A DNA stretch of 44,228 bases from Candidatus Woesearchaeota archaeon (GCA_018221205.1 JAAOYF010000010.1:1-44228); one strand, 5' to 3'; shown: positions 1,290 to 42,993, counted from the first letter of the stretch. A program made the numbers and translations. The notes: generated by a model not told the origin, from the letters alone.

Positions 1290-1290
1290 G

Positions 1291-2439: not shown

Positions 2440-3191
2440 TTCATCATTCTGACGAAGAAATAGATCGCTGCGATCACCATAGCGATGCTTAAGTATTGTC
2501 CCATACCTAACCCGAATAACTTTGCTTCTTCTCTCCAGAAATCAGTGAATATCCTGAAGACACCATACCCAAGGACGAATGTCCAGAAGCTCACTCCAGC
2601 CATCTTCTGCTTCTGATAGATCTTGAAGACAACATAGAACAGGATAAGGTGAGTAAGGGCAGCATAGATTTGATAAGGGTGCCTGCAGAAGTTATCGACA
2701 AGAGTAAATTTGACGCACCAAGGGACATTTCCCACAATACCCACCAGTTCTTGATTCGTAAAGTTCGCGATTCGTCCTAAGGTCAATCCCAAAGCAGCAG
2801 GAATGACAGAAGCATCTATGATATTCATCACGCCGATTTTATGTTTCTTGCTGAAAAAATAGACAGCAACGACTGCCCCGATCAAGCCGCCATGGAAACT
2901 CAGGCCGCCTTGCCAGATAAAGAGGAGATCCCAGGGAGTAGAGAATATCACTAAAGGATTGAAGAACACAAAATGGAATATTCTAGCGCCCACGACAATG
3001 CCGATCAAAAGATACAAGATAAGATCGTCTACCTTCTCTAAGGGCAGATTCAGCTTCTCTTCTTTGACATAATAGCGGAAGAATAAGTAGGCGATGACAA
3101 ATCCCAAAGCATAGATAAGGCCATAATACCTGATTTCTAAGAATCCAAGCTTCAATAGGACAGGATTGATATTATTGACGAACATACGCAT
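2406..3191 (-). CDS. lgt: Prolipoprotein diacylglyceryl transferase
   Basis: Lgt motifs RYYGLIY, GARI, WQGGLSFHGG, GRIANFTNQELVG, RHPYQIY and YGVFRIFTDFWR. Multi-pass hydrophobic protein. Confidence 0.92.
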   Translation of the reverse strand: MRMFVNNINPVLLKLGFLEIRYYGLIYALGFVIAYLFFRYYVKEEKLNLPLEKVDDLILYLLIGIVVGARIFHFVFFNPLVIFSTPWDLLFIWQGGLSFHGGLIGAVVAVYFFSKKHKIGVMNIIDASVIPAALGLTLGRIANFTNQELVGIVGNVPWCVKFTLVDNFCRHPYQIYAALTHLILFYVVFKIYQKQKMAGVSFWTFVLGYGVFRIFTDFWREEAKLFGLGMGQYLSIAMVIAAIYFFVRMMNHSSKDAGDSS

Positions 3192-17713: not shown

Positions 17714-17750
17714 GGTCACACCCCCTCGACCAGAAACAGAGGTATATAGT

Positions 17751-24131: not shown

Positions 24132-24207
24132 CACGATTCAGATTCTATCAAAATATAAAAACCTTCTCAAAGTAAGTTTTATATATCTCCTCCTTGTCTC
24201 AAATAGA

Positions 24208-25741: not shown

Positions 25742-25745
25742 CTCG

Positions 25746-27111: not shown

Positions 27112-27789
27112 ATGGATTTCAAGATACCTTCTGGCTCAGACATCATAGATGATTTCCTCGAAGGAGGCTATGAAAAGGATGTCCTCACCACCATATATGG
27201 ACCCTCAGGCTCCGGCAAGACGACGTTATGCATGCTCGCCTCGTTGAATCAGGCTAGAAAAAAGAAGAAAGTCATCTACATCGATTCTGAAGGCGGCTTT
27301 TCCATAGAGCGCTTCAAGCAGCTGGCAGGAGAGGAGTTCCAGGACATCTTGAAGTATATCATGCTCCTCAAGCCAACAAGTTTTGACGGCCAGAATAAGG
27401 CATTAGAAAAGCTGAAATCTCTCATCAATGAGAAGATAGGCCTTATTGTTGTCGACACCCTGACAATCTTCTACCGTCTTGAATTGGCAAAGAAAGAGGA
27501 ATTCAAATCAACAAACAACAAGCTCATCTGGCAGATCTCTTATCTTACCGAAATAGCGAGAAAGCATAATATTCCCATACTGATAACCAACCAGGTCTAT
27601 TCAGATTTCCAGCAAAGAAATAACGTGAAGATGGTCGGTGGAGATATTCTGAAATACCACTCAAAATGCCTTATGAAACTCACCAAGATCAACACAAAGC
27701 GCAAAGCAACATTGATGATCCATAGATCGATTCCAGAGGGAAAAGAGCTGGATTTCGGCATCATAAATGAAGGTATAATTGTCGAATAA
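27112..27789 (+). CDS. radB: DNA repair protein RadB
   Basis: Short RecA-fold without N-terminal domain. GPSGSGKT, YIDSEGGFS.ER, TNQVY, GGDILKY.SK and IHRS.PEG. Confidence 0.9.
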   Translation: MDFKIPSGSDIIDDFLEGGYEKDVLTTIYGPSGSGKTTLCMLASLNQARKKKKVIYIDSEGGFSIERFKQLAGEEFQDILKYIMLLKPTSFDGQNKALEKLKSLINEKIGLIVVDTLTIFYRLELAKKEEFKSTNNKLIWQISYLTEIARKHNIPILITNQVYSDFQQRNNVKMVGGDILKYHSKCLMKLTKINTKRKATLMIHRSIPEGKELDFGIINEGIIVE

Positions 27790-27834: not shown

Positions 27835-29373
27835 ATGAGTAAGAAGAAACAGCTGAAAGACTATCAGGAAATAAAGAAATCCCATGAATTGTCTAAAGAC
27901 AGGATTAAGTTCCAGCACTCTAAAGGCAAGATGACTGTTTGGGAAAGGCTTGATTTTCTTATGGACAAAGGCTCATTTATCGAGTATGATGAATTCGTCG
28001 AATCAAAAGAACCTTCTTTGAAAGATAAGAGACAGCCGAGAGACGGTGTCGTGACAGGCATAGGAAGGATAGATGGAAAAAAAGTCTGCATCTATGCGCA
28101 GGATTTCACTTTTATAGGAGGATCTATGGGCGAAGGCCATACAAGAAAAGTCGCCAAGATCATGAAACATGCCCTTAAGCTAGGGTGCCCAGTCATAGGT
28201 TTGCTGGATTCAGGCGGCGCTAGGATCCAGGAAGGTGTTTCTGGATTAGATGGAGGAGGAGAGATCTTTCGAACTAACACAAGAGCTTCTGGAGTCATCC
28301 CTCAGATTTCAGCTATCATGGGGCCTTGTGCAGGCATCGCAGTCTATTCTCCAGCTCTTACCGATTTCATCATGATGGTCAATAAGACCTCCAACATGTT
28401 CATCACCGGTCCGCAAGTCATCAAGACAGTGACAGGAGAGGAAATTTCCTTTGATAAATTAGGAGGAGCATCTGTCCATAATGAGCAATCAGGAGTAGCT
28501 CACTTCTACGCAGATAATGAGAAGCAATGTCTCCTGAAGATAAAGAAGCTGGCTTCTTATCTTCCTCAGAACAATCTAGAATCATCTCCAGTCTTGGATA
28601 CGAAGGACAACCCAGACAGGAAAGTACCTAAACTTCTCGAGATCATACCAGAAGATTCTATGCAGGTCTATGATGTCATAGGAGTCATAGATGAGATTGT
28701 CGATAAGAAAAGCTTCTATCAAGTACATGAGAAATATGCACAGAATGCAGTCGTAGGATTTGCACGATTGAACAATAATGTCGTCGGCATTGTCGCAAAC
28801 CAACCTCAGGTATTGGCAGGCTGTTTAGACATCAATTCATCTGATAAGATCGCAAGATTCGTACGTTTCTGTGACAGTTTCAATATTCCTTTGATCAATC
28901 TCGTCGACGTGACTGGATATCTGCCCGGAGTAGAGCAGGAACATGGCGGCATCATAAGACATGGTGCAAAGATCCTGTTTGCCTATTCCGAAGCCACGGT
29001 TCCTAAGATTTCTTTAGTCATGAGAAAAGCCTATGGTGGAGCATATATTGCCCTGGTTTCAAAAGACATGGGCTTCGACAAGGTCATTGCCTGGCCCACT
29101 GCTGAGATCGCAGTCATGGGCGCTGAAGGCGCTGTCAATATCCTCAATCGGAAAGAGCTTGCCAAGGAAAAGAATCCGGCAAAATTAAGAAAGAAGCTTA
29201 TCGAAGAATACGAGGAGAAATTCCTCAATCCATACATTGCTGCAAGGCAAGGCAAGGTAGATATGATCATCGACATGCAAGACACGAGAAAAACCCTCAT
29301 TGATGTTCTAGAGTCTTTGATTACAAAGAGAGAAAAGCTTCCTCCGAAGAAACACGCTAACATCCCTCTCTAA
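27835..29373 (+). CDS. Acyl-CoA carboxylase carboxyltransferase subunit (PccB/AccD-type)
   Basis: DGVVTG, QDFT..GGS, DSGGARIQEG, GPCAG, RFCD.FNIP, RKAYGGAY and KKH.NIPL. Confidence 0.95.
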   Translation: MSKKKQLKDYQEIKKSHELSKDRIKFQHSKGKMTVWERLDFLMDKGSFIEYDEFVESKEPSLKDKRQPRDGVVTGIGRIDGKKVCIYAQDFTFIGGSMGEGHTRKVAKIMKHALKLGCPVIGLLDSGGARIQEGVSGLDGGGEIFRTNTRASGVIPQISAIMGPCAGIAVYSPALTDFIMMVNKTSNMFITGPQVIKTVTGEEISFDKLGGASVHNEQSGVAHFYADNEKQCLLKIKKLASYLPQNNLESSPVLDTKDNPDRKVPKLLEIIPEDSMQVYDVIGVIDEIVDKKSFYQVHEKYAQNAVVGFARLNNNVVGIVANQPQVLAGCLDINSSDKIARFVRFCDSFNIPLINLVDVTGYLPGVEQEHGGIIRHGAKILFAYSEATVPKISLVMRKAYGGAYIALVSKDMGFDKVIAWPTAEIAVMGAEGAVNILNRKELAKEKNPAKLRKKLIEEYEEKFLNPYIAARQGKVDMIIDMQDTRKTLIDVLESLITKREKLPPKKHANIPL

Positions 29374-29374
29374 G

Positions 29375-29755
29375 ATGGAAGAAATAAAAGTCAATATCGA
29401 CGGCAAAGAGCAAGTTGTCAAGATAGAAGAAGAAGGAAATTCTCTGAAAGTGCATTTAGATGGTAAGGTCTACACCGTCGAGACAGGTCTGAAGAATGAA
29501 CAGAAAGATTTCGACCTAGAAGAATCCTCAGATTCCTCTGCAGGCGGCTCAATAAGGGCCCATCTGCCTGGAGTTATCTTCTCCATCGATATTAAGCAAG
29601 GAGATAAGGTAAAGAAAGGCCAGAAATTATGTTCTTTGGTTGCCATGAAGATGGAGAACCAGATCAAAGCACCGATAGCCGGAAAGATAAAGAAAATCAA
29701 TGTTAAAAAGAACGATAAAGTCAACAAAGGCGATATATTATTAATTATTGAATAA
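29375..29755 (+). CDS. Biotin carboxyl carrier protein
   Basis: AMKMEN biotinylation motif. Starts 1 nt after the CT stop. Confidence 0.93.
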   Translation: MEEIKVNIDGKEQVVKIEEEGNSLKVHLDGKVYTVETGLKNEQKDFDLEESSDSSAGGSIRAHLPGVIFSIDIKQGDKVKKGQKLCSLVAMKMENQIKAPIAGKIKKINVKKNDKVNKGDILLIIE

Positions 29756-29759
29756 GATA

Positions 29760-30047
29760 TTAATATCTAATCAAGCTCTGTCCACTTAGATTGACATAAT
29801 GACTTTTTAATTCTTTACCAGGTTCATTCCAAATAAGATCCAGTATTTGTTCATATGCATCCCATATTGTATCGGGTTTGCTTCCCTCACTTGCTGCACT
29901 ATACATGAGTGTTATTACAATCAAGGCAATGGGAGTGTACGCTGCTTTTCCAGCAATAATCGAAATATCTTTTGCTTTCGCGCTTACAACTCCGACCTGC
30001 TCCTCTAAAGTCAGCCCAGGTTTTGGATCTTCTGGCTTAAATAACAT
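29760..30047 (-). CDS. Hypothetical protein with one hydrophobic segment
   Basis: ATG-initiated ORF that fills the gap, with a TATA-like TTATAAA upstream. No homology recognised. Confidence 0.5.
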   Translation of the reverse strand: MLFKPEDPKPGLTLEEQVGVVSAKAKDISIIAGKAAYTPIALIVITLMYSAASEGSKPDTIWDAYEQILDLIWNEPGKELKSHYVNLSGQSLIRY

Positions 30048-30095
30048 GAATTATCTAAATCAGTTACAATTTATAAGAATTATTGTACTAGAGAG

Positions 30096-30326
30096 CTATT
30101 TCTTACCGTTTCCAGCACGGCCAAAAAGAATACCTGCGAGAACATTCAATGCCCATGCTTGAAGAACACTTATCTTATAGAGCGCTCCGAACACAAAGTT
30201 CCACAGCCACATGACTGGAAAAGCAAGGATCAGGCCGATGATTGCCGATATGAGGATGACCAGAAGCATAGTATAGGCTAGGTCTATTAATCTACCTAAT
30301 ATTGGAATGTTTGTCAATACCCCCAT
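30096..30326 (-). CDS. Small membrane protein
   Basis: 76-aa hydrophobic ORF (PVMWLWN...I...QAW.L) with TTTAAAAA upstream. Confidence 0.65.
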   Translation of the reverse strand: MGVLTNIPILGRLIDLAYTMLLVILISAIIGLILAFPVMWLWNFVFGALYKISVLQAWALNVLAGILFGRAGNGKK

Positions 30327-30381
30327 AGGAAAAACAGGTATTTATCAGTTTTTAAATCTTCCGGCTGTTTAAAGAACAGAA

Positions 30382-31050
30382 TTAGAGAAGAGTGACATCC
30401 CCTTCTTGCACAACTAAAGGCCCTTCTTCAGTCTGTACAACCAAATGGCCTTCATCATTGATATCAACAGCCTCTCCAGAGATAGTCTTATCCAATGATT
30501 TTACCGTAACGTTCTTGCCGAGCATGCCGCATTTCTCTTTGAACATTCGCAGTATATCAGAATGATCCAATGTCAGCAACTCTTCATATCTCTTAAGAAT
30601 TTTCCCTAATAACTCATTCAGGTCGCTTTCTTTCCCCGTCACTTCTTTCAGTGAAACAGCAATCTTTGTTATGTCAGAAAGCTCATTGTTCACATTCAGC
30701 CCAATGCCCACAACAACTTTCTCTGCTTCATTCCCAGAAAACTCAACCTCTGAAAGGATTCCGCAGATCTTCTTTCCCTCAACGAGAATATCATTAGGCC
30801 ATTTCGTTTCTCCCGTACCAATACTCTCGAGAACAGCCAATGCTCCGATAAAAGTATACTCAAACAATCTCTTCCCAGGTTCCAACACCAGGCTGAACCA
30901 CAATCCACCTTTCGAAGAGACCCATTTCCTTCCGAAACGTCCTCTGCCACGGATCTGTTCCTCAGCGACGATCACATTATTGGCAGGATACTTCTTAGCA
31001 ACCTCATTCGTAGAATCAACCTCTGGAAAAGTATGGATATGGAACATCAT
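30382..31050 (-). CDS. birA: Biotin--[acetyl-CoA carboxylase] ligase (no HTH domain)
   Basis: DSTN, Q..GRGRFGR.W.S, KWPND, KICGIL.E and GIGLNVN. Confidence 0.95.
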   Translation of the reverse strand: MMFHIHTFPEVDSTNEVAKKYPANNVIVAEEQIRGRGRFGRKWVSSKGGLWFSLVLEPGKRLFEYTFIGALAVLESIGTGETKWPNDILVEGKKICGILSEVEFSGNEAEKVVVGIGLNVNNELSDITKIAVSLKEVTGKESDLNELLGKILKRYEELLTLDHSDILRMFKEKCGMLGKNVTVKSLDKTISGEAVDINDEGHLVVQTEEGPLVVQEGDVTLL

Positions 31051-32915
31051 TCATGGAAGATGGCTTCTTGTCTGGCAGTATGCACCCACATGCTGTTCTT
31101 GTCATTGAAACGATTTTTTTTCTTCATATACTCTGTTACAGCAGTCGAGATGATGATTGCTTTTTCATCTTTTGACAATGTTTTCTTCTTCTTGAATTCC
31201 TTCCGGATCCTCTCCATGATCTGATTCTTCTCGATGAAAGAGGTGGTTATGGTCCCCTTCTGGAACGCATCAGTGTTCAAGACAACCTTATGGAATGGGA
31301 TGGTAGTATCCACTCCCTCGATGATGAATTCTTCTAATGCCCTTTTCATCCTCTCGATAGCTTCTGCTCGTGTCTTGCCGCCGCACATCAATTTAGCCAA
31401 AAGAGAATCATAATGAGGACTCACAACTTGCCCGGCATGCGAACCAGAACACACTCGGATGCCCGGACCTCCTGGAGGAAGATAATTCACGATCGTTCCT
31501 GTTTCAGGACAGAACCCATCATGGACACATTCCGTATTTATACGGCATTCAATGGCCCACCCATCCATCTTGATATCTTCCTGTTTGAAGGCAAGCTCAG
31601 CTCCTGCCGCTATTTTAATCTGCTCTTTCACCAGGTCGATGCCGGTTATCATCTCAGTTATACCATGCTCGACTTGGATTCGAGTATTCATCTCCATGAA
31701 ATAGAAAGTTCCTTGTTTATCGATGAGAAACTCGACCGTACCAGCTCCCTCATAGTTGATTGAAGAGACAACTTTCAACGCTGCCCTCCCCATCTTCTCT
31801 CTCATCTCAGGAGTCAGTGCAGGACTGGGAGCTTCCTCGATCAATTTTTGATGCCGTCTCTGGATAGAACAATCTCTCTCACCCAGATGGATGATATTTC
31901 CTTTTCTATCGGCCAAGATCTGGAACTCGATATGCTTAGGATCTTCAATATACTTCTCGATAAAGACATCGTTGTTGCCGAATGCACTATGAGCTTCTGT
32001 CTGGCACGATATGAAATTCTCCTCGAAGCTTTCTCTGTTATGGACAATCCTCATGCCTTTGCCTCCTCCCCCAGCAGCTGCTTTGATGATGATTGGAAAG
32101 CCGATATGGCTGGCAACTTGTTTCCCTTCCTCGACATCCAGGATAGAGTGTCCAGTTCCTTCAAGGACAGGAACCCCTGCCTGACTGATCAATTGTTTGG
32201 CATTGATCTTATCTCCCATCGCTTCAATAGCCTTAGAGGAAGGCCCGATGAATTTGATGCCGTTCTTTTTGCACAGCTTCGCAAATTCAGCGTTCTCAGC
32301 CAAAAAACCATAACCCGGATGCACTGCATCCACTTTACATTTCTTGGCTACTTTGATGATCTTGTTCATATTGAGATAATCAGATGCCTTATTCCCTAAC
32401 TTGATCGCCCGATTTGCAAATTTCACCCCTAGACTTTTCTCATCCTGCTTTGTATACACCTGGACAGATTCGATGCTCAGCTCACGACAAGCTCTGATGA
32501 CTCTCAAAGCGATCTCTCCCCTGTTCGCAACCAAGATTCTCTTGAACAGTCTTCCTTTCTTGATTTTGGTATAATCCTTCATCTCACCCAAAGCAAGACC
32601 CTTGGTCAGGATATCCAGAAAGCCCGCAGAGTCCTTTTCCCTGACAATCTGCTTCAGCTTATCCTCGCTCATATGGGGCAATTTACTTGCAATTTCAGAA
32701 GTGATGACCTCAGTCAATTTACTGAAGCCAGGATCTTCTTGCAGCTTCCTGCTCGTTTCAAAACTGATCAGATGGTTCTTCAGGAAGCTTTCAAGCTCAT
32801 GGAATACATCCGGCACTTTCTTTCTCAGGCCCCTGACACCTTTCTTAAGGCCCATATAACCCTTTTCTAAAGGCTTCAGTGCATTATTGATGAACTTTGC
32901 AGTCTTCTTTTTCAT
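31047..32915 (-). CDS. accC: Biotin carboxylase with N- and C-terminal extensions
   Basis: ANRGEIA, HPGYGFLAEN, KAAAGGGGKGMR, ERDCSIQRRHQK, EMNTRIQVEH and YDSLLAKL. Confidence 0.93.
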   Translation of the reverse strand: MKKKTAKFINNALKPLEKGYMGLKKGVRGLRKKVPDVFHELESFLKNHLISFETSRKLQEDPGFSKLTEVITSEIASKLPHMSEDKLKQIVREKDSAGFLDILTKGLALGEMKDYTKIKKGRLFKRILVANRGEIALRVIRACRELSIESVQVYTKQDEKSLGVKFANRAIKLGNKASDYLNMNKIIKVAKKCKVDAVHPGYGFLAENAEFAKLCKKNGIKFIGPSSKAIEAMGDKINAKQLISQAGVPVLEGTGHSILDVEEGKQVASHIGFPIIIKAAAGGGGKGMRIVHNRESFEENFISCQTEAHSAFGNNDVFIEKYIEDPKHIEFQILADRKGNIIHLGERDCSIQRRHQKLIEEAPSPALTPEMREKMGRAALKVVSSINYEGAGTVEFLIDKQGTFYFMEMNTRIQVEHGITEMITGIDLVKEQIKIAAGAELAFKQEDIKMDGWAIECRINTECVHDGFCPETGTIVNYLPPGGPGIRVCSGSHAGQVVSPHYDSLLAKLMCGGKTRAEAIERMKRALEEFIIEGVDTTIPFHKVVLNTDAFQKGTITTSFIEKNQIMERIRKEFKKKKTLSKDEKAIIISTAVTEYMKKKNRFNDKNSMWVHTARQEAIFHE

Positions 32916-33072
32916 ATTGACTAGAAGCTCTATTTTGCTTTTTAAACGTTTCCAAAAACAGTTTATAAAGTCTATATTTGCTCAAAAATAGCTCTTTCAG
33001 GCCTTAAATCACCCATATTTAGGCATCGAAAGCTATATAAATTAACATGAGTTATTCCGGAGAGTGATACCT
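32916..33072. promoter_or_regulatory. Divergent archaeal promoter region (accC-birA / fabZ operon)
   Basis: Minus strand TTTAAAAA (32946-32939) ~24 nt before the accC ATG. Plus strand CGAAAG-C-TATATAAA (BRE/TATA-like, TATA 33034-33041) and SD-like GGAGAGTGA before the fabZ ATG. Confidence 0.55.
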
Positions 33073-33555
33073 ATGGACGAAATAGAAAAACTCAAAAAAG
33101 ATGGACAATTGGATAAGGAAGCGATAATGAAGATCATTCCTTATAATGAGCACTTTCTCATGATTGATAAAGTGACCGAGCTTGAAAAGAAGAAGATCGT
33201 AGCAACAAAAGAGATAACTGGCGATGAAGACTACTTGAAAGGACATTTCGCCGGCTTCCCTATAATGCCCGGAGCGCTTATGGTGGAAGGCATGGGCCAA
33301 GCAGCAACATTATTGATGCGCTATAATGTCGAGAATCATCAGGAAAAAGAGATTCTCGCATACAAGATAAAAGATGCGAAATTTTCTAAGCCGACCTTTC
33401 CCCCTGCAGTCCTCACCTATGAGGCAGAGATGCAGGGCATGGATAACCGAGGTGCGTTGCTGACCAGTAAGGCCATGGTGGATGGGCAGAAAGTGGCTGA
33501 AGCAACCCTGATGCTGGCTATGGTCGATCGAAAGCAATTCCGCTCCCAATCATGA
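33073..33555 (+). CDS. fabZ: 3-hydroxyacyl-thioester dehydratase, FabZ-like hotdog
   Basis: IPY...FLMIDKV, GHF.GFPIMPGALMVEGMGQ (catalytic His and Glu retained) and KF.KP.FP. Confidence 0.88.
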   Translation: MDEIEKLKKDGQLDKEAIMKIIPYNEHFLMIDKVTELEKKKIVATKEITGDEDYLKGHFAGFPIMPGALMVEGMGQAATLLMRYNVENHQEKEILAYKIKDAKFSKPTFPPAVLTYEAEMQGMDNRGALLTSKAMVDGQKVAEATLMLAMVDRKQFRSQS

Positions 33556-34682
33556 TCATGCAGAGATACATCCATGGAGTAGGTATGACTAAGTTTGGGA
33601 TAGAGGATATCTCAGCTCCAGACCTCGCAAGAGAGGCCATCGTGCAGGCATTGAAAGGCTCCAGCATGTCTCCAAACGACATTGATGCGATTGTCCTTTC
33701 TAATGCCGATACCAAACTATCACCGGAACGGCAGCGCGATCTGACTCCTATGCTCGCTTCCATCTTGAAAAGAAAACTCCCTATAGTCAGGATTCCTGCA
33801 GTCTGTGGCGGCGGAGGAGCAGCGATGTGGTCTGCACTGAAGCTGAAGTACAATAATATCTTGGTTATCGCTGTCGAAAAGATAGCTTCTACCTCTACTC
33901 AGATGATAACAAAAGAGATCATGCATGCAAGCGATAATTTCCACGAGCAGGATGAGGGTTTGATCTTTCCTGCAGTCAATGCAATGGTCGCGCAGGCACA
34001 CATGCTAAAATTCGGCACCACCCATGACGATCTTGCGCTGATCTCCTACAAGAACCATCATCATGGCAGTCTCAATCCGAAAGCACGCTTCTACAGGAAG
34101 AATATCTCCCTGGACACCATTAAGAACGCGCCAATAATCTGTTCTCCTTTTACATTATATGACTGTTCCATCAGCGTCAACGGCGCAGCAGCAGCAATAA
34201 TCTCAAATGATAGATCAGACATCAAAGTGAAAGGCTCTTCATTGGCAGCAGATTATCTTGCTCCCTTTGAAAGAGATGAGCTCACGACCTGGACAGGGAC
34301 AGTGAAATCAGGGAAGGAAGCGTTCCAGCAGGCTGACTTAAATCCATCTGACATCAATGTCGCGGAATTGCATGACGCCTTTTCGATTGTTGAACTCCTT
34401 GCCTATGAAGATCTGGGTTTCTGCAAGAAAGGAGAAGGAAAAAACTTTATCCGGGACGGCCATCCGAATCTCGACGGAAAAGTGCCTATAAACACATCCG
34501 GCGGCCTTAAGGCGCGCGGTCATCCTATCTCACCGACAGGGATGGCACAGATAGTCGAGATAGCCGATCAGCTGCGAGGGAGATGCGGAGACAGGCAGGT
34601 GACGAATCCTAAATACGGTTTAGCGCATAATATTGGAGGTGCAGGAGGCACGACAACGTGCCATATCCTACAAAAATGGTAA
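33552..34682 (+). CDS. Archaeal/SCP2-type thiolase (paralog 1)
   Basis: GVGMTKFG, AVCGGGG (nucleophile Cys), ELHDAF, NTSGGLKARGHP and HNIGG. Confidence 0.9.
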   Translation: MIMQRYIHGVGMTKFGIEDISAPDLAREAIVQALKGSSMSPNDIDAIVLSNADTKLSPERQRDLTPMLASILKRKLPIVRIPAVCGGGGAAMWSALKLKYNNILVIAVEKIASTSTQMITKEIMHASDNFHEQDEGLIFPAVNAMVAQAHMLKFGTTHDDLALISYKNHHHGSLNPKARFYRKNISLDTIKNAPIICSPFTLYDCSISVNGAAAAIISNDRSDIKVKGSSLAADYLAPFERDELTTWTGTVKSGKEAFQQADLNPSDINVAELHDAFSIVELLAYEDLGFCKKGEGKNFIRDGHPNLDGKVPINTSGGLKARGHPISPTGMAQIVEIADQLRGRCGDRQVTNPKYGLAHNIGGAGGTTTCHILQKW

Positions 34683-35797
34683 AGACAATTCGTTGGAAAT
34701 GTGAAGCATGCGATCTGACATGGATCCACCCTATTGAGACATGCTTATACTGCGATAAGCAGGTGAAAAAGATCATCGGAACAAAGCATAAGGTCATCGG
34801 AATAACTGAAGTGCATATTCCTAATCCGTTGCACCCTATTGTGCCCTATAATGTCCTTCTTCTTCAGGACGAGCATGGCAACAAGATGCCTAAGAAGACC
34901 ATGAAGAAGTACGGGGTTGGAGATACGTATGAGGATAAGCCGAATGACTCTGAAAGAGCGATCTCCTCAATTAAAATAAAGTATGATTTCTATGAGGCTG
35001 TCAAGGAAGCATTGGAATTGATAGGAGATATCGATGCAAAAGGGAAAAAAGTGCTGCTCAAACCGAATCTCAGCATTCCAGCCTATCCTTATCTCGGCCT
35101 CTCGACAAATCCTAAAGTATTGGATGCATTGATACAGATTTTGAAGGAAAAAGGCGCTGCAAAGATAGCCATAGCAGAGCAGAGCTTCTTTGTTCCCACT
35201 GAAAAAGCAGTGGCAAAATCAGGACTGGCAGAGCTTATGAAAAAACATGATATAGAGTTCATTGACATAGCCGAGACTGAATTTGAAGAGAAGAAGCAAA
35301 GGGAATTTACGTTCAAGGTCTCAAAGATAGTGGATGATTTTGATCTGCTCATCAACGTTCCGGTCATCAAGACCGATATGGTGCTCGGAATGGACGGTGC
35401 GTTTGAGAACCTGACAAGGTTCCTGGCAAAAGAGACATTCGATGATCTTGCGAAAGATCCCCAGAAAGCTGCATTGGCATTGGCAGCTCTCCTGAACATC
35501 TTTCCAAAATTCCTCACTATAGGTGATGCTTCCATAGGCACACAAGGAAACGGTCCTGCACAGCACGGCGAACCAGGTTTTTACGGTTTGATCTTCGCAG
35601 CCCGCAACCCAGTCGTCCATGATACAGCTGTCCAGGAAGTGTTCTGTCTGAGAAAACTTCCTTATGTCCAGATGGCAGGAAAACTCGGAATGGGAGAATA
35701 CGATTATAACAAGATTGAATTCGTCGGCAATGAGCTGGATGCTCTCAGGAAAGACATCAAGCAGCCGATAGGATCAAAATTGCTCAAGAAAGGTTAA
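34676..35797 (+). CDS. DUF35-like Zn-ribbon/OB-fold fused to a DUF362-like domain
   Basis: N-term CEAC...P...CLYC plus V.GITEV.......PY.V.L (DUF35). C-term KKVLLKPN, TNP.V..A.I..L...GA, INVPVIKT and NPV..D (DUF362). Confidence 0.75.
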   Translation: MVKTIRWKCEACDLTWIHPIETCLYCDKQVKKIIGTKHKVIGITEVHIPNPLHPIVPYNVLLLQDEHGNKMPKKTMKKYGVGDTYEDKPNDSERAISSIKIKYDFYEAVKEALELIGDIDAKGKKVLLKPNLSIPAYPYLGLSTNPKVLDALIQILKEKGAAKIAIAEQSFFVPTEKAVAKSGLAELMKKHDIEFIDIAETEFEEKKQREFTFKVSKIVDDFDLLINVPVIKTDMVLGMDGAFENLTRFLAKETFDDLAKDPQKAALALAALLNIFPKFLTIGDASIGTQGNGPAQHGEPGFYGLIFAARNPVVHDTAVQEVFCLRKLPYVQMAGKLGMGEYDYNKIEFVGNELDALRKDIKQPIGSKLLKKG

Positions 35798-35798
35798 G

Positions 35799-36926
35799 AT
35801 GTATATCAAAGGAACAGGCATGACGAAATTCGGGACATCTGATAAGTTCTCACACCAGCTCGCTTATCAGGCTACCCAAGATGCCTTGAAAGACGCAGAT
35901 ACGAAATTCAAGGACATAGACGCAGTCATCTGCTCTTCTTTGGAGTTCTTCTCCTCGATTGAGAAGCAACGGCATTTTGCTTCGATGCTTTCATCGATGT
36001 TCAAGACCAACAAGCCGATCATCAGGGTGCCTGCTGCCTGCGCCGGAGGAGGAAATGCAGTGTGGTTCGCAAATCAGCTCGGCTATGACAAGGTCTTGGT
36101 GGTGGGTGCTGAAAAGCTCATGACTATGAAATCCTCGACCATAACAGATGAATTCATGATGGCAGCCGAGCCTTTTTACGAGCAGCCAGAAGGCCTTAAT
36201 TTTCCTGCCCAGAATGCAGCAGTCGCACAGGAATACATGTTCAAATATCCCGAGACAACCCATGATCATCTCGCTCTTATCGCACATAAGAACCACCATA
36301 ATGGTTTCCTCAATCCAAAGGCCAAGTTCTTCGGTAAGAAAGTATCTTTGGAGACGATAAAGAACGCTCCTATGGTATGCTCCCCCCTACGATTATACGA
36401 CTGTTCCATCAGCGTCGACGGAGCAGCAGCCCTTGTCCTGACAAAGGACAAGACAGATATTGAGATCGCAGGCTCAGACATGTGCAATGATTTCCTCCCT
36501 TCTTTTGAGAGGGCAGATAATACTTCTTGGGATGCGACGAAGATAGCCTCAAAGAATGCCTATGGGCAGGCAAAGCTCACTCCCGAAGACATCAATATTG
36601 CAGAGGTCCATGATGCCTTCACCAGTGTTGAATTGATCGCATATGAAGATTTAGGTTTTGCCAAGCCCGGAACAGCATATAAGAAGATCGAAGCAGGCTA
36701 TTTCAATCTCGACGGTAAGCTTCCCGTAAATACATCAGGTGGCCTGAAAGCAAAAGGTCATCCTATTTCAGCGACAGGGGTTGCCCAGATGGTTGAGATA
36801 ACGCAGCAGCTGAGGAATCAGGCAGGAGATAGGCAGGTCACTGGTGCAAAGATCGGACTGTGCCAGAACATCGGAGGAGCAGGAGCCATTATTGCTACTC
36901 ATATTCTGAAAAAGATTGGAGGCTAA
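35799..36926 (+). CDS. Archaeal/SCP2-type thiolase (paralog 2)
   Basis: GTGMTKFG, AACAGGG, DGAAA, EVHDAF, NTSGGLKAKGHP and QNIGG. Confidence 0.9.
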   Translation: MYIKGTGMTKFGTSDKFSHQLAYQATQDALKDADTKFKDIDAVICSSLEFFSSIEKQRHFASMLSSMFKTNKPIIRVPAACAGGGNAVWFANQLGYDKVLVVGAEKLMTMKSSTITDEFMMAAEPFYEQPEGLNFPAQNAAVAQEYMFKYPETTHDHLALIAHKNHHNGFLNPKAKFFGKKVSLETIKNAPMVCSPLRLYDCSISVDGAAALVLTKDKTDIEIAGSDMCNDFLPSFERADNTSWDATKIASKNAYGQAKLTPEDINIAEVHDAFTSVELIAYEDLGFAKPGTAYKKIEAGYFNLDGKLPVNTSGGLKAKGHPISATGVAQMVEITQQLRNQAGDRQVTGAKIGLCQNIGGAGAIIATHILKKIGG

Positions 36927-36970
36927 AATGAAAATTCAAAAATTAAAAATTTTTGAAATTCATTTTTTTA

Positions 36971-36976
36971 GGAGGT
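36971..36976 (+). promoter_or_regulatory. Shine-Dalgarno GGAGGT for fabG
   Basis: GGAGGT-AAAAAA-ATG. Confidence 0.7.
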
Positions 36977-36982
36977 AAAAAA

Positions 36983-37717
36983 ATGAAAGGAAAAAACGCA
37001 CTTATTACAGGTTCAGCTCGAGGTTTGGGAAAGGAGATGGCCCTTACATTAGCAAAAGAAGGAGTAAATATCATCATCAATGATATCCCTCAGATGAAGG
37101 AAGAAGCAGAGAAGACCGTCGAGGAATTAACAAAGCTTGGAGTGAAATCAGAATTCCTCCCAGGAGATGTCTCAGATTTCGATTCCTGCAAGAAACTGGC
37201 AGAAGAGATAAAGAAGAAGTTCGAGAAGCTCGACATCCTCATCAATAATGCAGGAATAACAAAGGATAGAACGCTAAAGAAGATGACTAAAGAAGAATGG
37301 TATCCAGTTATCAGCGTCAATCTCAATTCCCTCTATAATGTGACTCATAATGTCATGGAATTGATCCCAGAAGGAGGAAGGATAGTCAATATCTCATCGA
37401 TAGCTGGTACGGCAGGCAATTTCGGCCAGACCAATTACTCAGCGACAAAAGCAGGCGTCATCGGCTTCACCAAATCATTGGCAAAAGAATTAGGAAAGAA
37501 TAAGATAACCGTCAACGCCGTCGCTCCAGGTTTCATCAAGTCAGCAATGACCGATAAGATCCCCTTGCAGATGCTGGCAAATATTCTTGAGTTAATCCCC
37601 ATGAAGACGACCGGAGAGCCGGAAGATGTCGCCAATGCAGTGAAATTCCTCTGCTCAGACGACGCTAAGTACATAACAGGAATAACGTTAGGAGTAGATG
37701 GAGGATTGAGTTTTTAA
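36983..37717 (+). CDS. fabG: 3-oxoacyl-thioester reductase (FabG/PhaB-like SDR)
   Basis: TGSARGLG, NNAGITKD, NISS, GQTNYSATKAG and VAPGFI. Confidence 0.88.
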   Translation: MKGKNALITGSARGLGKEMALTLAKEGVNIIINDIPQMKEEAEKTVEELTKLGVKSEFLPGDVSDFDSCKKLAEEIKKKFEKLDILINNAGITKDRTLKKMTKEEWYPVISVNLNSLYNVTHNVMELIPEGGRIVNISSIAGTAGNFGQTNYSATKAGVIGFTKSLAKELGKNKITVNAVAPGFIKSAMTDKIPLQMLANILELIPMKTTGEPEDVANAVKFLCSDDAKYITGITLGVDGGLSF

Positions 37718-37758
37718 TTTTTCATTACTATTATATAGCCTAAAATATCTCTCAACCT

Positions 37759-38445
37759 ATGAAAGGCACATTCATCATCGTGGATGGCATCGACGGCTCC
37801 GGGAAAGGAGAGGTCATGCGCGTTTTTCAGGATCAGCATGAACATGTCTTTGACCTTGATAAATATACACAAGATCATAGAAGATTCCCGAAGATTGAAG
37901 AGATAAACCAAGAAGTCATTCTTTCTGCCGAGCCAACTCATGTCTATGCCGGCGCAGCCTTAAGAGAAGAGATTTTAGCAGGAGAAAGAAAATATTCTGC
38001 ATTAACCACTGCCCATGGGTTTGCGTTAGACAGAGAGATTCTCTATAACCGTTTCATCATACCTGCGTTGAAAGCAGGAAAGACCATCATCCAGGAAAGA
38101 GGGATTGCCTCATCATTGGTCTATCAGCCAGTGCAGATGGAAAAACTCTCTCTGAGGGATATCATGAACATCTCCGGCAACAGATTGGCAATTAAGAACG
38201 CCCCAAATTTCCTCATCATCGTCAAGGCAGATGCAGACGTCATCTCCAAGCGAATTAAAGGAAGAAAAGGCATCTTCGACAGCCTCTTTTTCCAGAGAAA
38301 GATTGAAGAACGGTTTGAATCAGAATGGCTCAAGCAGGTCTTTGAAAGATTCGGCTCGAAAGTCATCTATATCGACGGAAACCTTCCTTTAGAAGAAGTA
38401 AAAGAAAATGCATTGAAAATCTATAATGATCATTTGAAGAGGTAA
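37759..38445 (+). CDS. tmk: Thymidylate kinase
   Basis: FI.VDGIDGSGKG, EPT, F..DR, QER...SSLVYQ and P. Confidence 0.82.
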   Translation: MKGTFIIVDGIDGSGKGEVMRVFQDQHEHVFDLDKYTQDHRRFPKIEEINQEVILSAEPTHVYAGAALREEILAGERKYSALTTAHGFALDREILYNRFIIPALKAGKTIIQERGIASSLVYQPVQMEKLSLRDIMNISGNRLAIKNAPNFLIIVKADADVISKRIKGRKGIFDSLFFQRKIEERFESEWLKQVFERFGSKVIYIDGNLPLEEVKENALKIYNDHLKR

Positions 38446-38693
38446 TGCTTTCTCACTTTTTTGTTGATCTTCCAGGTGCATTTCATTCCTTTAGGAAAAA
38501 CCACATAATCGCCTTTCTCAAAATGAGATACTTCTCCTTCTTCATTCGTCACATCGACATCTCCCTCTAGAAGCAGGCAATGCTCTTCCTGGCTGTATTC
38601 CCAAGGGAATTCACTTTCCTCTTTCTCCCAGATCCCCCAATCTTTGACTTTCTCCCTATCTTCTTCAGTCGCCTTATGTATGGTCGGTTTCAT
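38430..38693 (-). CDS. Cupin, DUF861/EutQ-like
   Basis: WGIWEKE.SEFPW.Y...E.C..LEG.V, GD.V.FPKG..C.W and KHY.F. Start at MKPT. Confidence 0.88.
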   Translation of the reverse strand: MKPTIHKATEEDREKVKDWGIWEKEESEFPWEYSQEEHCLLLEGDVDVTNEEGEVSHFEKGDYVVFPKGMKCTWKINKKVRKHYLFK

Positions 38694-38775
38694 GAGGGTA
38701 TTGAATCGAGAAGCGTATATATTACTTTCTCTGGAAATAGTGACATTTATATAGTTTTCAAGAGCAATCTTACCA

Positions 38776-39417
38776 ATGGTACACGCAATCGCACGCCACA
38801 CAATCATCTTTTTTACGAGTCTCTATATAAAGAAGATTGAAGGGATAAAGAATCTTCCTGAAGGCCCGTTTATCTTCGCCGCAAATCACGCATCCTATAT
38901 AGATGATTTTGTCATTCCCCTCTTGAGCTTTTCCTATCTCAAAAAGAAAGTAGTCATATTTGTCAACTCATTGTATCATAAATATCCTTTCCTGAGGAGC
39001 TACCTCCTCCACTATAATTGCATCCCCCTTGCTGTGAGAAAGTATGTGAAGGATGCAAGGAAGAGGAAAGCGACCAACAAAAAAGCATTCGCATTCGCGA
39101 AAAAAGGCTTGAAAGAAGGAAAACTTATCGGCATTTTTCCAGAAGGGACAAGGAGCAAGGACGGGAAACTGCAAAAAGCTAAGATAGGCGTCGCTCAGCT
39201 AGCGTTAGAAGCAGGTGTCCCAGTAGTGCCGATCGGGATAAAAGGCTCTTTTGATATCCTGCCTCCAGGAAGATTTTTCCCTCGTTTCAAGAGATGCACG
39301 GTAAAAATCGGCAAACCTCTCTATTTCAAAGAAAAGAAGAAAGATTATAAAACACTCGAAAGAGTGACTACTAAAATCATGAAAGAGATTGCAAAACTCA
39401 TCGATCAGAGCTACTAA
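38776..39417 (+). CDS. plsC: Lysophospholipid/G3P acyltransferase, PlsC family (paralog 1)
   Basis: NHASYID (HxxxxD), FPEGTRS and VPVVPIGI. Confidence 0.9.
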   Translation: MVHAIARHTIIFFTSLYIKKIEGIKNLPEGPFIFAANHASYIDDFVIPLLSFSYLKKKVVIFVNSLYHKYPFLRSYLLHYNCIPLAVRKYVKDARKRKATNKKAFAFAKKGLKEGKLIGIFPEGTRSKDGKLQKAKIGVAQLALEAGVPVVPIGIKGSFDILPPGRFFPRFKRCTVKIGKPLYFKEKKKDYKTLERVTTKIMKEIAKLIDQSY

Positions 39418-39418
39418 A

Positions 39419-40051
39419 ATGGTCTATCCGATAGCACGCATCATCATTTCCGCATTGTTGAGCCCATGGATGGGAAAATGTACGGGTATAGAGAATGTTC
39501 CCAAGAAAAAAGGAGCGCTTTTGGCAGCAAATCACGCTTCTTATCTGGATCATTTTGTCATCGGCACAAAAGTCGTTCCTCACACAAACAAAGTTCTTCA
39601 TTTCCTCGCTAAGCAAGAACATTTTGATTCCCCACACCAATGGTTATGGCATAAATATCTGAGAGCAATACCTCTAGATAGGAAAGCAGGTGGAAAAACA
39701 GGATTGTCAAAAGCAGTCAAACATCTGAAGAAGGGAGACCTCATCATGATCTACCCTGAAGGTACGAGAACATTAGATGGTAAGATGAACAAAGCCAAGA
39801 CAGGTGTGGCAAGATTGGCATTGGCAGCGCATGTTCCGGTCATCCCCATGGGAATAACCAACACTTTTAGGATTCTTCCGAAGAAAAAGCGCTTTCCTCG
39901 AAGAGGAAAAGCAGATTTAAATATAGGGAAGCCGCTCTATTTTACACAGTACTATGGCAAGGGAAGTGACAAGAAAGTGCTGAGAAAGGTGACTAACATC
40001 ATAATGAAAGAGATTGCAAGATTATCAAAGCAAGAATATCCACACAGATGA
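39419..40051 (+). CDS. plsC: Lysophospholipid/G3P acyltransferase, PlsC family (paralog 2)
   Basis: NHASYLD, FLAK.E.F, IPLDR, YPEGTRT and VPVIP. Confidence 0.92.
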   Translation: MVYPIARIIISALLSPWMGKCTGIENVPKKKGALLAANHASYLDHFVIGTKVVPHTNKVLHFLAKQEHFDSPHQWLWHKYLRAIPLDRKAGGKTGLSKAVKHLKKGDLIMIYPEGTRTLDGKMNKAKTGVARLALAAHVPVIPMGITNTFRILPKKKRFPRRGKADLNIGKPLYFTQYYGKGSDKKVLRKVTNIIMKEIARLSKQEYPHR

Positions 40052-41016
40052 TATCAGTAATAGGCGCAGGAACATGGGGCACAACGTTGGCGAATGTGCT
40101 TGCAGAGAATAATCCAGATGAGCAGATAATGCTCTGGGCCCGCGAGAAGGAAGTAGTCGATTTCATAAACAATGAAAACAAGAACATACTTTTCCTTCCC
40201 GAGATAAGGCTTGCAAAGAATATCAAAGCAACAGCCAATATAGAAGAAGCAGTTGCAGATATAATCATAACAGCGATTCCTGCACAATTTTTAAGAGAGA
40301 ACATCAAGAAGATAAGCGATAAGATAAAAACAGCAACTATAGTGAACGTGGCAAAAGGACTTGAGATCCATACCTTCAAGCGTATGTCAGAGGTTCTGAA
40401 AGAAGAGCTTCCAGACGCGAAGATTGCGGTCTTATCAGGTCCTAATCATGCCGAGGAAGTCGCAAGGAAGATCCCGACAGCGACAGTCATCGCTTCAAAA
40501 GATGCTGATTTAGAACATCTAAAGAGACTCTTCGAGGCAGACCATTTCAAGGTCTATTCTCATGATGATGTTATTGGAGTAGAGATCTGTGCTGCAGTGA
40601 AGAATATAACAGCAATCGCAACCGGAGTGATAGCAGCATTAGGATTGGGAGATAACGCAAACGGCTCCATCATAACGCTTGGCCTGAGAGAGATGGTCGA
40701 ATTAGGAAGAAATTTTGGAGCGAATGAAAAGACCTGCTACGGCCTGGCAGGAGTAGGGGATCTGGTCGCTACATGCACATCAACACACTCCCGAAACCGA
40801 AAAGCAGGTGCCTTAGTTGCCAAAGGCATGGATTTTGACGCGATAAAGAAAGAGATGCACGGTATGGTCGCTGAAGGCATATGGACCTGCAAAGCTGTGC
40901 ATGAATATGCAGAAAAAAATAACCTTAATCTGCCTCTAACGAGCCAAATCTACAAAGTCCTCTATGAAAAAAAAGAATTAAGACATGCCATAGAGGATTT
41001 GAAAAAGTTAATTTAG
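40048..41016 (+). CDS. gpsA: NAD(P)H-dependent sn-glycerol-3-phosphate dehydrogenase
   Basis: GAGTWGT, AKGLE, LSGPNHA.EV, KNI.AI..G, GLAGVGDL..TC.S..SRN and AEG. ATGA overlap with plsC. Confidence 0.95.
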   Translation: MISVIGAGTWGTTLANVLAENNPDEQIMLWAREKEVVDFINNENKNILFLPEIRLAKNIKATANIEEAVADIIITAIPAQFLRENIKKISDKIKTATIVNVAKGLEIHTFKRMSEVLKEELPDAKIAVLSGPNHAEEVARKIPTATVIASKDADLEHLKRLFEADHFKVYSHDDVIGVEICAAVKNITAIATGVIAALGLGDNANGSIITLGLREMVELGRNFGANEKTCYGLAGVGDLVATCTSTHSRNRKAGALVAKGMDFDAIKKEMHGMVAEGIWTCKAVHEYAEKNNLNLPLTSQIYKVLYEKKELRHAIEDLKKLI

Positions 41017-42393: not shown

Positions 42394-42993
42394 TTATTCC
42401 TCCGTAAAATCGTCGACACTCTCTTTAAGATCTTCTTTCGGCTTCAGTTTTCCTATCTTGCGCAGATATTCTCGTGCAAGCAGCCAAAAGAACAATCCGA
42501 GGCTTTTCTTTCCCTTGTTGTTGCAAGGTATAACGAGATCGATGAAATTGCTCTGGTTGTTGGTATCACAAAGGGCAATGACAGGGATGCCGATCTTCAT
42601 CGCATCCTGGATAGCGTTTCGGTCAGGCCAGGAATCAGTGACAAAGACGATCTTTGCCTCGACATATCTCTTCAATTCAGGATTGGTCAATACCCCAGGC
42701 AGATATCTGCCTGCAAAGGTCTTGCAGCCAGTTACCTTTCCGAACATCTTGACAGGCTTCCACGAATTCTCTCTTCTGGATGAGATCAAGATGTCTTCAG
42801 GCTCGAATTGAGCAAGCAGATTTGCTGCAAGCTTGATACGTTCATCGATTTTCTGTAGATTGAGAACAGAAAGTCCATCAGGACGTGTTTTGTAAATAAA
42901 ATCAGCCATGTATTTTGTCTTGAATTTAGTACCGATATGGATACCACTCTTCAAATATTCTTCTTGTGCGATTAAAAATCCTTCTTCTGCCAT
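42394..42993 (-). CDS. rps2: 30S ribosomal protein uS2 (archaeal type)
   Basis: YL.SGIHIGTK, R.DGL.VL, GRY.PG.LTNP, D..AI.DA, CDTN and IPCNNKG..SL. Confidence 0.96.
   Translation of the reverse strand: MAEEGFLIAQEEYLKSGIHIGTKFKTKYMADFIYKTRPDGLSVLNLQKIDERIKLAANLLAQFEPEDILISSRRENSWKPVKMFGKVTGCKTFAGRYLPGVLTNPELKRYVEAKIVFVTDSWPDRNAIQDAMKIGIPVIALCDTNNQSNFIDLVIPCNNKGKKSLGLFFWLLAREYLRKIGKLKPKEDLKESVDDFTEE

Follow-up and report, generated by a model that had tools for sequence, protein, structure and literature searches.

A conserved gene cluster of Woesearchaeales predicted to join carrier-protein-free fatty-acid synthesis to glycerol-3-phosphate ester phospholipids

A predicted route from acetyl-CoA to phospholipid

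A stretch of 44,228 nucleotides from a Candidatus Woesearchaeota archaeon (GCA_018221205.1, JAAOYF010000010.1:1-44228), here called the window, carries between positions 27,835 and 41,016 a cluster of genes for an acyl-CoA carboxylase, two thiolases on either side of a DUF35-type fusion protein, FabZ- and FabG-type enzymes, two PlsC-family acyltransferases and GpsA. The cluster is real and conserved. It probably encodes a carrier-protein-free, coenzyme A (CoA)-based synthesis of fatty acids that would feed predicted glycerol-3-phosphate (G3P) ester phospholipids, in a genome in which no ether-lipid backbone genes were found. It most likely works like the thiolase/DUF35 synthase of Sulfolobus joined to a bacterial glycerophospholipid pathway. 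A first-pass annotation had proposed a route from acetyl-CoA to acyl-G3P for this locus, and the sequence evidence now supports that proposal, with the gaps it had pointed to (enoyl reductase, head groups, ACP and other FAS II genes, ether-lipid genes) closing in its favor.

In this pathway, pyruvate dehydrogenase or acetate-CoA ligase would supply acetyl-CoA, which biotin carboxylase (BC), biotin carboxyl carrier protein (BCCP) and a carboxyltransferase (CT) would carboxylate. With the DUF35 domain holding them, the two thiolase-fold enzymes would condense an acyl-CoA with a C2 unit, to be followed by reduction by FabG, dehydration by FabZ and reduction by FabI; in ten other sampled genomes, an acyl-CoA dehydrogenase (ACAD) with electron-transfer flavoprotein (ETF) would take the place of FabI. 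GpsA would then provide G3P, the two PlsC paralogues would attach the two acyl chains, and archaeal CarS, replacing CdsA, would activate the resulting phosphatidic acid. Finally, PgsA-, PssA- and Psd-type enzymes would yield phosphatidylglycerol (PG)/cardiolipin-type lipids, phosphatidylserine and phosphatidylethanolamine, and Lgt would lipidate proteins using PG.

To our knowledge, a membrane made of ester lipids that the cell itself synthesizes has yet to be demonstrated in any archaeon. A route that is gene-complete in about one in eleven of the sampled genomes of the order (14/151) matters for several questions: by what path an archaeal cell could exchange one membrane chemistry for another, whether the dependence of some DPANN archaea on hosts has been overrated, how fatty acids serve as biomarkers of bacteria, and whether thiolases can be decarboxylating condensing enzymes. 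A more far-reaching hypothesis is offered tentatively, its chances being somewhat short of even: that a DPANN clade lies fully across the lipid divide, with a de novo G3P ester membrane, malonyl-dependent thiolases acting on CoA substrates, no acyl carrier protein (ACP) or ketoacyl synthase (KAS), two PlsC enzymes for both acylations, and a CarS retuned to phosphatidic acid. If so, this would be a natural case of an archaeon changing over to lipids of bacterial type, a step that eukaryogenesis required.

The cluster and its archaeal setting

The window is the entire contig C33 of a 1.28-Mb genome of the Woesearchaeales (DPANN), hereafter the source genome, which is 94.78% complete and 0.59% contaminated. 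Matches to Pfam and NCBIfam profiles place all 12 genes named in the first-pass annotation where it had put them, and the catalytic motifs that it described as kept are conserved across relatives as well. The archaeal flanks that it reported are also confirmed, with RadB (27112..27789, +; TIGR02237 above cut-off) on one side and archaeal/eukaryotic-type ribosomal protein uS2 (42394..42993, -; TIGR01012 above cut-off) on the other. A dTMP kinase, a cupin and two small open reading frames (ORFs) also lie inside the 13-kb block, which is not a single transcript because BirA and BC are encoded on the minus strand.

The block is ordinary for its genome. Its tetranucleotide distance ranks 28 among 62 genome chunks, and read depth is 2.8-6.9 over all 30 bins in one run, which is probably the source sample and therefore not independent evidence. 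Thus, the recommended check of taxonomy and coverage gave a Woesearchaeales genome with even depth and no sign of chimerism. Furthermore, distances among the cluster proteins track those of uS2 and RadB (Spearman 0.34-0.73), a relationship that fits long vertical descent. A chance grouping or chimera of the block is unlikely.

Conservation across loci and genomes

A scan of species genomes with an alignment of the fusion protein yielded 78 loci. Neighbors were counted only in sufficiently long loci and within a 10-kb flank, so that the counts are lower bounds. Around the fusion gene, FabZ lies upstream in 60/61, a thiolase upstream in 61/61 and a second thiolase downstream in 61/61; FabG is present in 46/48, BC in 42/53, CT in 32/46, PlsC in 28/37 and GpsA in 25/37. 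The plsC-plsC-gpsA block stays near the fusion in either orientation, and the archaeal radB/rps2 flank recurs in many relatives. Synteny among relatives, which had been named as a test of the cluster, is thereby upheld over the 78 loci. Their record titles, on which no reliance was placed, read Woesearchaeota/Nanoarchaeota/Nanoarchaeia for 51, "uncultured Methanosarcinales" for 26 and Nitrospinota for one (a 4.3-kb contig); thiolases from differently titled loci intermix in one tree, and the named close homologues of the DUF35/DUF362 fusion come from Woesearchaeota/Nanoarchaeota.

The cluster was also surveyed in one sample of 151 genomes of the order with completeness of at least 85%. Cluster FabZ (at least 55% identity) occurs in 14 of these, from ten families, including one unpublished genome (G125); a 15th match, weak and partial, was dropped. 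Full-length CT is found in the same 14/14 and in 0/137 of the others, even where it lies on another contig (one partial match elsewhere was dropped). GpsA and at least two PlsC are present in 14/14 cluster genomes, and CarS in 13/14.

Variant loci carry insertions: ACAD with ETF in 12/78 loci, 2-oxoacid:ferredoxin oxidoreductase in 11-12, thioesterase in 22, CoA-transferase in 13, enoyl-CoA hydratase in 6/78, and a fatty-acid desaturase within the cluster in 2/78. In addition, 27/78 loci (e.g., L024:7795-8760, L027:5466-7157 and L028:14040-15752) encode a methyltransferase, which either stands by itself or is fused to a second FabG and which the source genome lacks. By analogy with polyketide C-methyltransferases, which methyl-branch chains, it could methyl-branch acyl chains.

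The carboxylase

The carboxylase comprises a CT of the propionyl-CoA carboxylase (PCC) beta type (27835..29373, +; PF01039, E 1e-188), BCCP (29375..29755, +; PF00364), whose AMKM-type motif is seen in 33/33 cases, biotin-protein ligase BirA (30382..31050, -; TIGR00121 above cut-off), and BC (31047..32915, -; TIGR00514 above cut-off) with an N-terminal extension of ~120 aa. In an alignment register to 1XNW/1XNY, CT has Ile at the position equivalent to D422 of Streptomyces PccB, as do 32/32 complete copies, two partial copies being left unscored. Ile at this site admits acetyl-CoA (PMC7835884, cited, like the papers below, from the accessible part of its text). The biotin importer BioY is encoded in 16/78 loci and elsewhere in the source genome.

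The thiolase/DUF35 module

Thiolase 1 (33552..34682, +), an archaeal/SCP2-type protein with Cys85, HDAF and GHP motifs, is a candidate condensing enzyme that superposes on 6ET9/6ESQ with a template-modeling (TM) score of 0.90-0.91. Thiolase 2 (35799..36926, +) is 54% identical to it and has the same catalytic motifs; the two are the only thiolase-fold proteins found in the source genome. Among cluster thiolases, Cys85 and HDAF are present in 123/123 and His324 in 122/123. The Cys-His-His set of this thiolase pair resembles that of KAS I/II.

Between the thiolases lies the fusion gene (34658..35797, +; likely start ATG 34676; model pLDDT 89.6), whose product joins a DUF35-fold (Zn-ribbon/OB) domain to a LarA-like DUF362 domain. 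The earlier description of this gene as a "DUF35 fusion" holds as to the fold of its N-terminus, but not as to a Pfam DUF35 match: there was none at E 1e-3, DUF362 being the sole match. The DUF35 assignment consequently rests on fold, the N-terminal ~105 residues of the predicted model matching the solved DUF35 chains 6OK1_D, 7PXP_E and 6ESQ_E in Foldseek. The remainder resembles lactate racemase LarA (2YJG/8EZF) at a TM score of about 0.36-0.40 and 12-17% identity, a likeness of fold only. A literature search on DUF362 found no paper whose accessible text addresses the fusion, and a search for short stand-alone relatives of the DUF35 part gave three proteins, all unnamed and each about 100 aa long.

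A complex of thiolase 1 with the fusion is predicted to form via residues 48-109 (score 0.86; best control 0.00). At least 97% of contacts are shared between runs, the pLDDT of the partner is at least 87, and the predicted thiolase interface lies almost wholly outside the DUF362 domain. The mark set for the complex score is reached by 116/157 solved pairs and 2/215 mismatched pairs. Because similar complexes have already been solved, the predicted contact shows likeness and may be memory.

The thiolase/DUF35 module is the sole condensing candidate and may use malonyl-CoA. Since no KAS was found, the thiolase pair is the simplest consumer of malonyl-CoA, and acetyl-CoA is less favored as the extender because the carboxylase co-occurs strictly with the cluster; on balance, malonyl-CoA is slightly the likelier of the two. 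The cluster thiolases, having HDAF, are without the acid/base Cys of HDCF, a residue described in PMC12329534, and a literature search linking the HDAF motif with thiolases gave no match.

Two observations on related thiolases may be added. A lead that bacteria of the candidate phyla radiation (CPR) have the same set was left unconfirmed by a small test, in which 10 clusters of near thiolase relatives were looked up and none was named as CPR. The only one with taxon names (P0258) belongs to the closest relatives beyond the clade; it holds an HDAF thiolase named from Njordarchaeia/Korarchaeota genomes. Furthermore, in 7/78 loci (L034, L056, L058, L069, L083, L092 and L104), a 3-hydroxy-3-methylglutaryl (HMG)-CoA synthase-thiolase(-DUF35) module is inserted downstream of the fusion. 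In 6/7, the inserted thiolase has Asp in place of the nucleophile Cys, and it may therefore serve as a scaffold, with acetoacetyl-CoA supplied by the thiolases of the cluster.

Reduction and dehydration

The FabZ-type (R)-3-hydroxyacyl dehydratase (33064..33555, +; PF07977) has a conserved His/Glu motif and scores 112.8 bits with NF000582, for which the cut-off is 113. The FabG/PhaB-type 3-oxoacyl reductase (36953..37717, +; likely start ATG 36983), which also has matches in the Protein Data Bank, scores 297.4 bits with TIGR01830 against a cut-off of 297.75. The enoyl reductase, listed by the first-pass annotation as something to look for, is encoded in the source genome as FabI on contig C29; two further short-chain dehydrogenases/reductases (SDRs; C19 and C26) were rejected as enoyl reductases by profile. 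All three enzymes, FabI, FabG and FabZ, belong to fatty-acid metabolism in its synthetic direction.

FabI occurs in 4/151 genomes of the order, all of them among the 14 cluster genomes and including the source genome. A close ACAD orthologue (70-100% identity) is present in exactly the other 10/14, where it adjoins ETF in the cluster in the cases inspected, and no cluster genome has both; four distant ACADs (26-39% identity) in non-cluster genomes were kept apart from this orthologue. That unrelated enzymes alternately fill one slot fits a cycle that is obliged to reduce enoyl-CoA.

From acyl-CoA to phospholipid

The two PlsC genes represent two position-specific subfamilies that differ in the second motif. 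The distal member (38776..39417, +; PF01553, with subfamily assigned by gene position) has a non-canonical second motif and is a candidate G3P acyltransferase, while the gpsA-proximal member (39389..40051, +; PF01553, TIGR00530 below cut-off) has a FLAK-type motif and is a candidate lyso-phosphatidic acid acyltransferase. The two subfamilies would therefore suit a division into first and second acylation. Within the PlsC family, there is a precedent for acylating G3P from acyl-CoA in mycobacterial PlsM (PMC10593935). The source genome has two short PF01553 proteins only and no long PlsB-type protein; PlsY was found in 0/5 genomes of the family, the source genome included, and PlsX, sought in the source genome with a motif scan only, was not found. 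GpsA (40048..41016, +; NF000942 above cut-off) is the NAD(P)H-dependent G3P dehydrogenase.

Head-group genes, another gap noted at first, were located on other contigs of the source genome, with pssA-carS-pgsA/pgsA on C38, another CDP-alcohol transferase on C65 and psd on C34. Their products are assigned as putative PgsA, PssA and Psd enzymes (TIGR00560 and TIGR00473 above cut-off; PF02666), archaea having related enzymes. A PF01148 match was rejected as CdsA: this gene is CarS, and it is the sole PF01148 match in the source genome. The window itself encodes a bacterial-type prolipoprotein diacylglyceryl transferase, Lgt (2406..3191, -; TIGR00544 above cut-off). Bacterial Lgt consumes PG, and a pattern scan of the source genome gave 16 lipobox-like ORFs. 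A scan of the source genome for LspA, PgpA, PAP2 and cfa, a weak test by motif, found none of them, and an ORF with a PLD motif on C66 matched no NCBIfam family at 1e-15.

In six cluster genomes (L135, L137, L139, L144, L145 and L151), a PHP-type gene, profile-checked in two, lies next to or near carS and is a candidate phosphatidylglycerophosphate phosphatase. No homologue of it was found in the source genome.

Genes not found in the source genome

The first-pass annotation had also called for a search for ACP, FabD, FabH/F and the ether-lipid enzymes. None of these was found in the 94.8%-complete source genome. Specifically, ACP was not found in it or, in one search, in any of five genomes of the family (0/5); KAS (FabB/F) was not found there, nor above cut-off in the 14 cluster genomes; and FabD, FabH, HMG-CoA synthase, 3-hydroxyacyl-CoA dehydrogenase and a long-chain acyl-CoA ligase were likewise not found in the source genome, AcsA being its only AMP-forming ligase. 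On the ether-lipid side, the search of the source genome found neither glycerol-1-phosphate dehydrogenase (G1PDH) nor geranylgeranylglyceryl phosphate synthase (GGGPS), and no UbiA-family prenyltransferase for the digeranylgeranylglyceryl phosphate synthase (DGGGPS) step at 1e-15. The best Fe-ADH match, to Fe-ADH_2, was rejected as G1PDH, as the gene is that of 3-dehydroquinate synthase. Also absent from the source genome are ACAD, ETF, 2-oxoacid:ferredoxin oxidoreductase, thioesterase and CoA-transferase. AcsA, pyruvate dehydrogenase subunits, and DXR, a marker of the methylerythritol phosphate (MEP) pathway, are present.

For ACP, FabD, FabH and FabB/F, search controls were positive in 10-14/14 reference genomes. 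With 5% of markers missing, single absences are no proof; however, ACP, KAS, FabH, FabD, PlsY and the dehydrogenase are also missing in four relatives per search, bar ACP-like matches in two genomes (G021 and G136).

Relation to known systems and earlier work

The closest functional model is the ACP-independent synthase of Sulfolobus acidocaldarius, which combines a ketothiolase/DUF35 pair with an SDR reductase, a MaoC dehydratase and an enoyl-CoA reductase of medium-chain dehydrogenase/reductase (MDR) type (bioRxiv 10.1101/2024.07.05.601840). Like that system, the cluster pairs a nucleophile-Cys thiolase with a DUF35-fold protein, has an SDR ketoacyl reductase and an (R)-specific hot-dog-fold dehydratase, and goes with no ACP found in the source genome. 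Unlike it, the cluster has FabZ for MaoC and FabI or ACAD/ETF for MDR (FabI, itself an SDR, here and ACAD in 10/14; no MDR enzyme was seen, although no search was aimed at one), as well as two thiolases, the DUF35-DUF362 fusion, a carboxylase that tracks it and the linked plsC-plsC-gpsA, in a source genome in which no ether-lipid backbone genes were found. The words "DPANN" and "acyltransferase" do not occur in the accessible text of that paper.

The cluster shares with bacterial type II fatty-acid synthesis (FAS II) and the bacterial phospholipid pathway homologues of the carboxylase, FabG, FabZ, FabI, GpsA, PlsC, PgsA, PssA, Psd and Lgt. In contrast to FAS II, ACP, FabD, FabH, FabB/F, PlsY and a long PlsB-type protein were not found in the source genome; furthermore, the carboxyltransferase is single-chain and PCC-type, and archaeal CarS sits at the CdsA slot. 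Of the bacterial G3P ester pathway, GpsA, PlsC and the head-group enzymes are thus represented, whereas PlsB or PlsX/PlsY, and CdsA, were not found; of the archaeal ether-lipid pathway, the source genome yielded none of G1PDH, GGGPS and DGGGPS. Hence, the cluster is not a member of FAS II, and it departs from the Sulfolobus system in its reductase, its dehydratase and its carboxylase link. In fold, the closest match is the archaeal acetoacetyl-CoA thiolase/DUF35/HMG-CoA synthase complex (6ESQ, 6ET9; thiolase 1 TM about 0.9, 33% identity), which is also matched by the DUF35 domain. Unlike that complex, the source genome has no HMG-CoA synthase (the MEP marker DXR being present instead), and its thiolases have HDAF rather than HDCF; where relatives have HMG-CoA synthase, it comes with its own thiolase and DUF35.

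A bacterial-like lipid potential of Woesearchaeota has been suggested in earlier literature on DPANN (PMC10936187, PMC8204110, PMC6431249, PMC11868695). Zhang 2024 (PMC10936187) reported FabG, FabI and FabZ in several DPANN metagenome-assembled genomes as genes of an ACP pathway. Castelle 2021 (PMC8204110) devotes a single sentence to bacterial fatty-acid genes located close to MEP genes; its G3P dehydrogenase family is the FAD type, and the KEGG numbers of GpsA, FabZ, PlsC, FabG and FabI had no match in the searched text of its supplement. Coleman 2019 (PMC6431249) found GpsA and PlsC to be patchy in archaea and judged a membrane role unlikely, and a 2025 study in Environ Microbiol (PMC11868695) has Woesearchaeia modifying host lipids while unable to make the building blocks. 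The accessible parts of these four papers do not describe the operon, nor do they mention its thiolase/DUF35 module, its link to the carboxylase or the lack of ACP, and a literature search, whose reach excluded subscription journals and bioRxiv supplements, found no published description of the operon.

Weighing the interpretation

Several considerations weigh against a carrier-free synthesis of ester phospholipids. The genes, motifs and co-occurrence are observed, whereas all catalytic steps are inferred; in addition, since the 14 cluster genomes are kin, their counts are not independent events. The weakest link is CarS. A separate CdsA was not found in the source genome, purified Archaeoglobus fulgidus CarS, which failed to complement E. 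coli cdsA, strongly prefers digeranylgeranylglyceryl phosphate (DGGGP) to phosphatidic acid (PMC9385802), and many genomes that lack the cluster have CarS. It is found in 72/151 genomes of the order, PlsC in 66/151 and GpsA in 38/151, and because many of these are free of the cluster, the three genes alone are no proof of synthesis. No phosphatidylglycerophosphate phosphatase was identified in the source genome. Among the 14 cluster genomes, 4 have an ACP-like domain (10 have no match), 7 have some UbiA-family gene, and 8 have weak, partial and untyped PcrB matches. As to condensation, HDAF was rejected as a marker of decarboxylating thiolases, because it is shared by 43/150 of the nearest relatives and also occurs in 7YVY and BbsB. 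For this fold, the only malonyl activity found cited is that of TbSLP, which decarboxylates very slowly (PMC12329534). The authors of the S. acidocaldarius study detected no thiolase that decarboxylates, and in the one that was tested they disproved the use of malonyl; their thiolase/DUF35 system gave only C4-C6 products in vitro and C8-C12 in cells (bioRxiv 2024.07.05.601840).

Such short chains would also suit a fermentative electron sink, in which C4-C8 acids arise by non-decarboxylative condensation and PlsC and GpsA form a separate module that re-acylates scavenged lipids. The ACAD, ETF, 2-oxoacid:ferredoxin oxidoreductase, thioesterase and CoA-transferase inserted in variant loci are in keeping with this idea, as clostridial chain elongation uses a comparable set. 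However, the source genome has none of these and has FabI instead, an ATP-consuming carboxylase tracks the cluster in 14/14 genomes (with no full-length copy in the other 137), the plsC-plsC-gpsA linkage is kept in both orientations, and no long-chain acyl-CoA ligase was found to feed PlsC. An electron sink is therefore unlikely. The same carboxylase link, FabI/ACAD alternation and lack of any detected uptake ligase disfavor degradation or remodeling of host acyl chains, that is, an (R)-specific beta-oxidation with a carboxylase for propionyl or branched intermediates. Thiolase/DUF35 pairs are indeed catabolic in BbsAB and Ltp2-ChsH2, ACAD/ETF is able to oxidize, enoyl-CoA hydratase is encoded in a few loci, and the 2025 paper (PMC11868695) has Woesearchaeia modifying host lipids. 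Yet 4/14 cluster genomes have FabI in place of ACAD, and the reduction of the enoyl group is a strongly exergonic step (bioRxiv 2024.07.05.601840); 3-hydroxyacyl-CoA dehydrogenase was not found, CT has Ile and not the propionyl-specific Asp, and the thiolases all keep the nucleophile Cys, unlike aldolases. Degradation is thus quite improbable.

Slightly less probable again is that the cluster makes minor acyl products only, such as octanoyl groups for lipoate, a pimelate-type biotin precursor or donors for protein lipidation, while the bulk membrane comes from a host. A pyruvate dehydrogenase with a lipoyl domain is encoded in the window, the methyltransferase, sometimes fused to a second FabG, recurs among the loci, and the fatty acids of S. 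acidocaldarius are trace components. Nevertheless, the presence of BioY points to biotin uptake, and cofactor synthesis would have no need of two acyltransferases, of GpsA or of a complete set of head-group enzymes. Finally, a chimeric assembly or a misbinned bacterial fragment would be very surprising: although several genes are bacterial-type and the depth run is not independent, the archaeal radB/rps2 flanks are shared with many relatives, the block is even in composition and depth, and the cluster distances run parallel to those for uS2 and RadB. Dozens of independent assemblies conserve this archaeal context, which in practice disposes of an objection that the first-pass annotation had itself raised.

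Neighboring genes and other observations

Inside the block, a conserved 76-aa hydrophobic protein with no assigned role and no Pfam match (30096..30326, -) has a homologue in 36/78 loci. Directly upstream of radB, the window encodes an MBOAT acyltransferase, a DUF1574 protein and two GT2 glycosyltransferases (21728-24134, -; 24506-27080, +), which are likely to serve surface-glycan synthesis and acylation; GT2 genes upstream of radB recur among relatives. Two other parts of the window (324-2439, +; 15896-17719, -) encode possible sources of acetyl-CoA: E1-beta and E2 subunits of the pyruvate dehydrogenase type and a GTP-dependent phosphoenolpyruvate carboxykinase. A 793-aa ORF without a Pfam match lies at 3929-6310 (+).

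Elsewhere in the order, FabF-like ketoacyl synthases occur in cluster-free Woesearchaeales (L168-L173, in G152, G074, G155, G127, G097 and G144). In G144, the gene adjoins a match to GpsA, with one to PlsC nearby, and in G074, it adjoins FabH; these genes possibly represent a second, separate route to bacterial-type lipids. In addition, long open frames of ~560-1040 aa with both ACP-like and PlsC-like matches are found in G007, G025, G057, G068, G098, G099, G111, G124, G127, G130, G135, G136, G152 and G156, and they resemble Aas-type fusions for lipid scavenging or repair.

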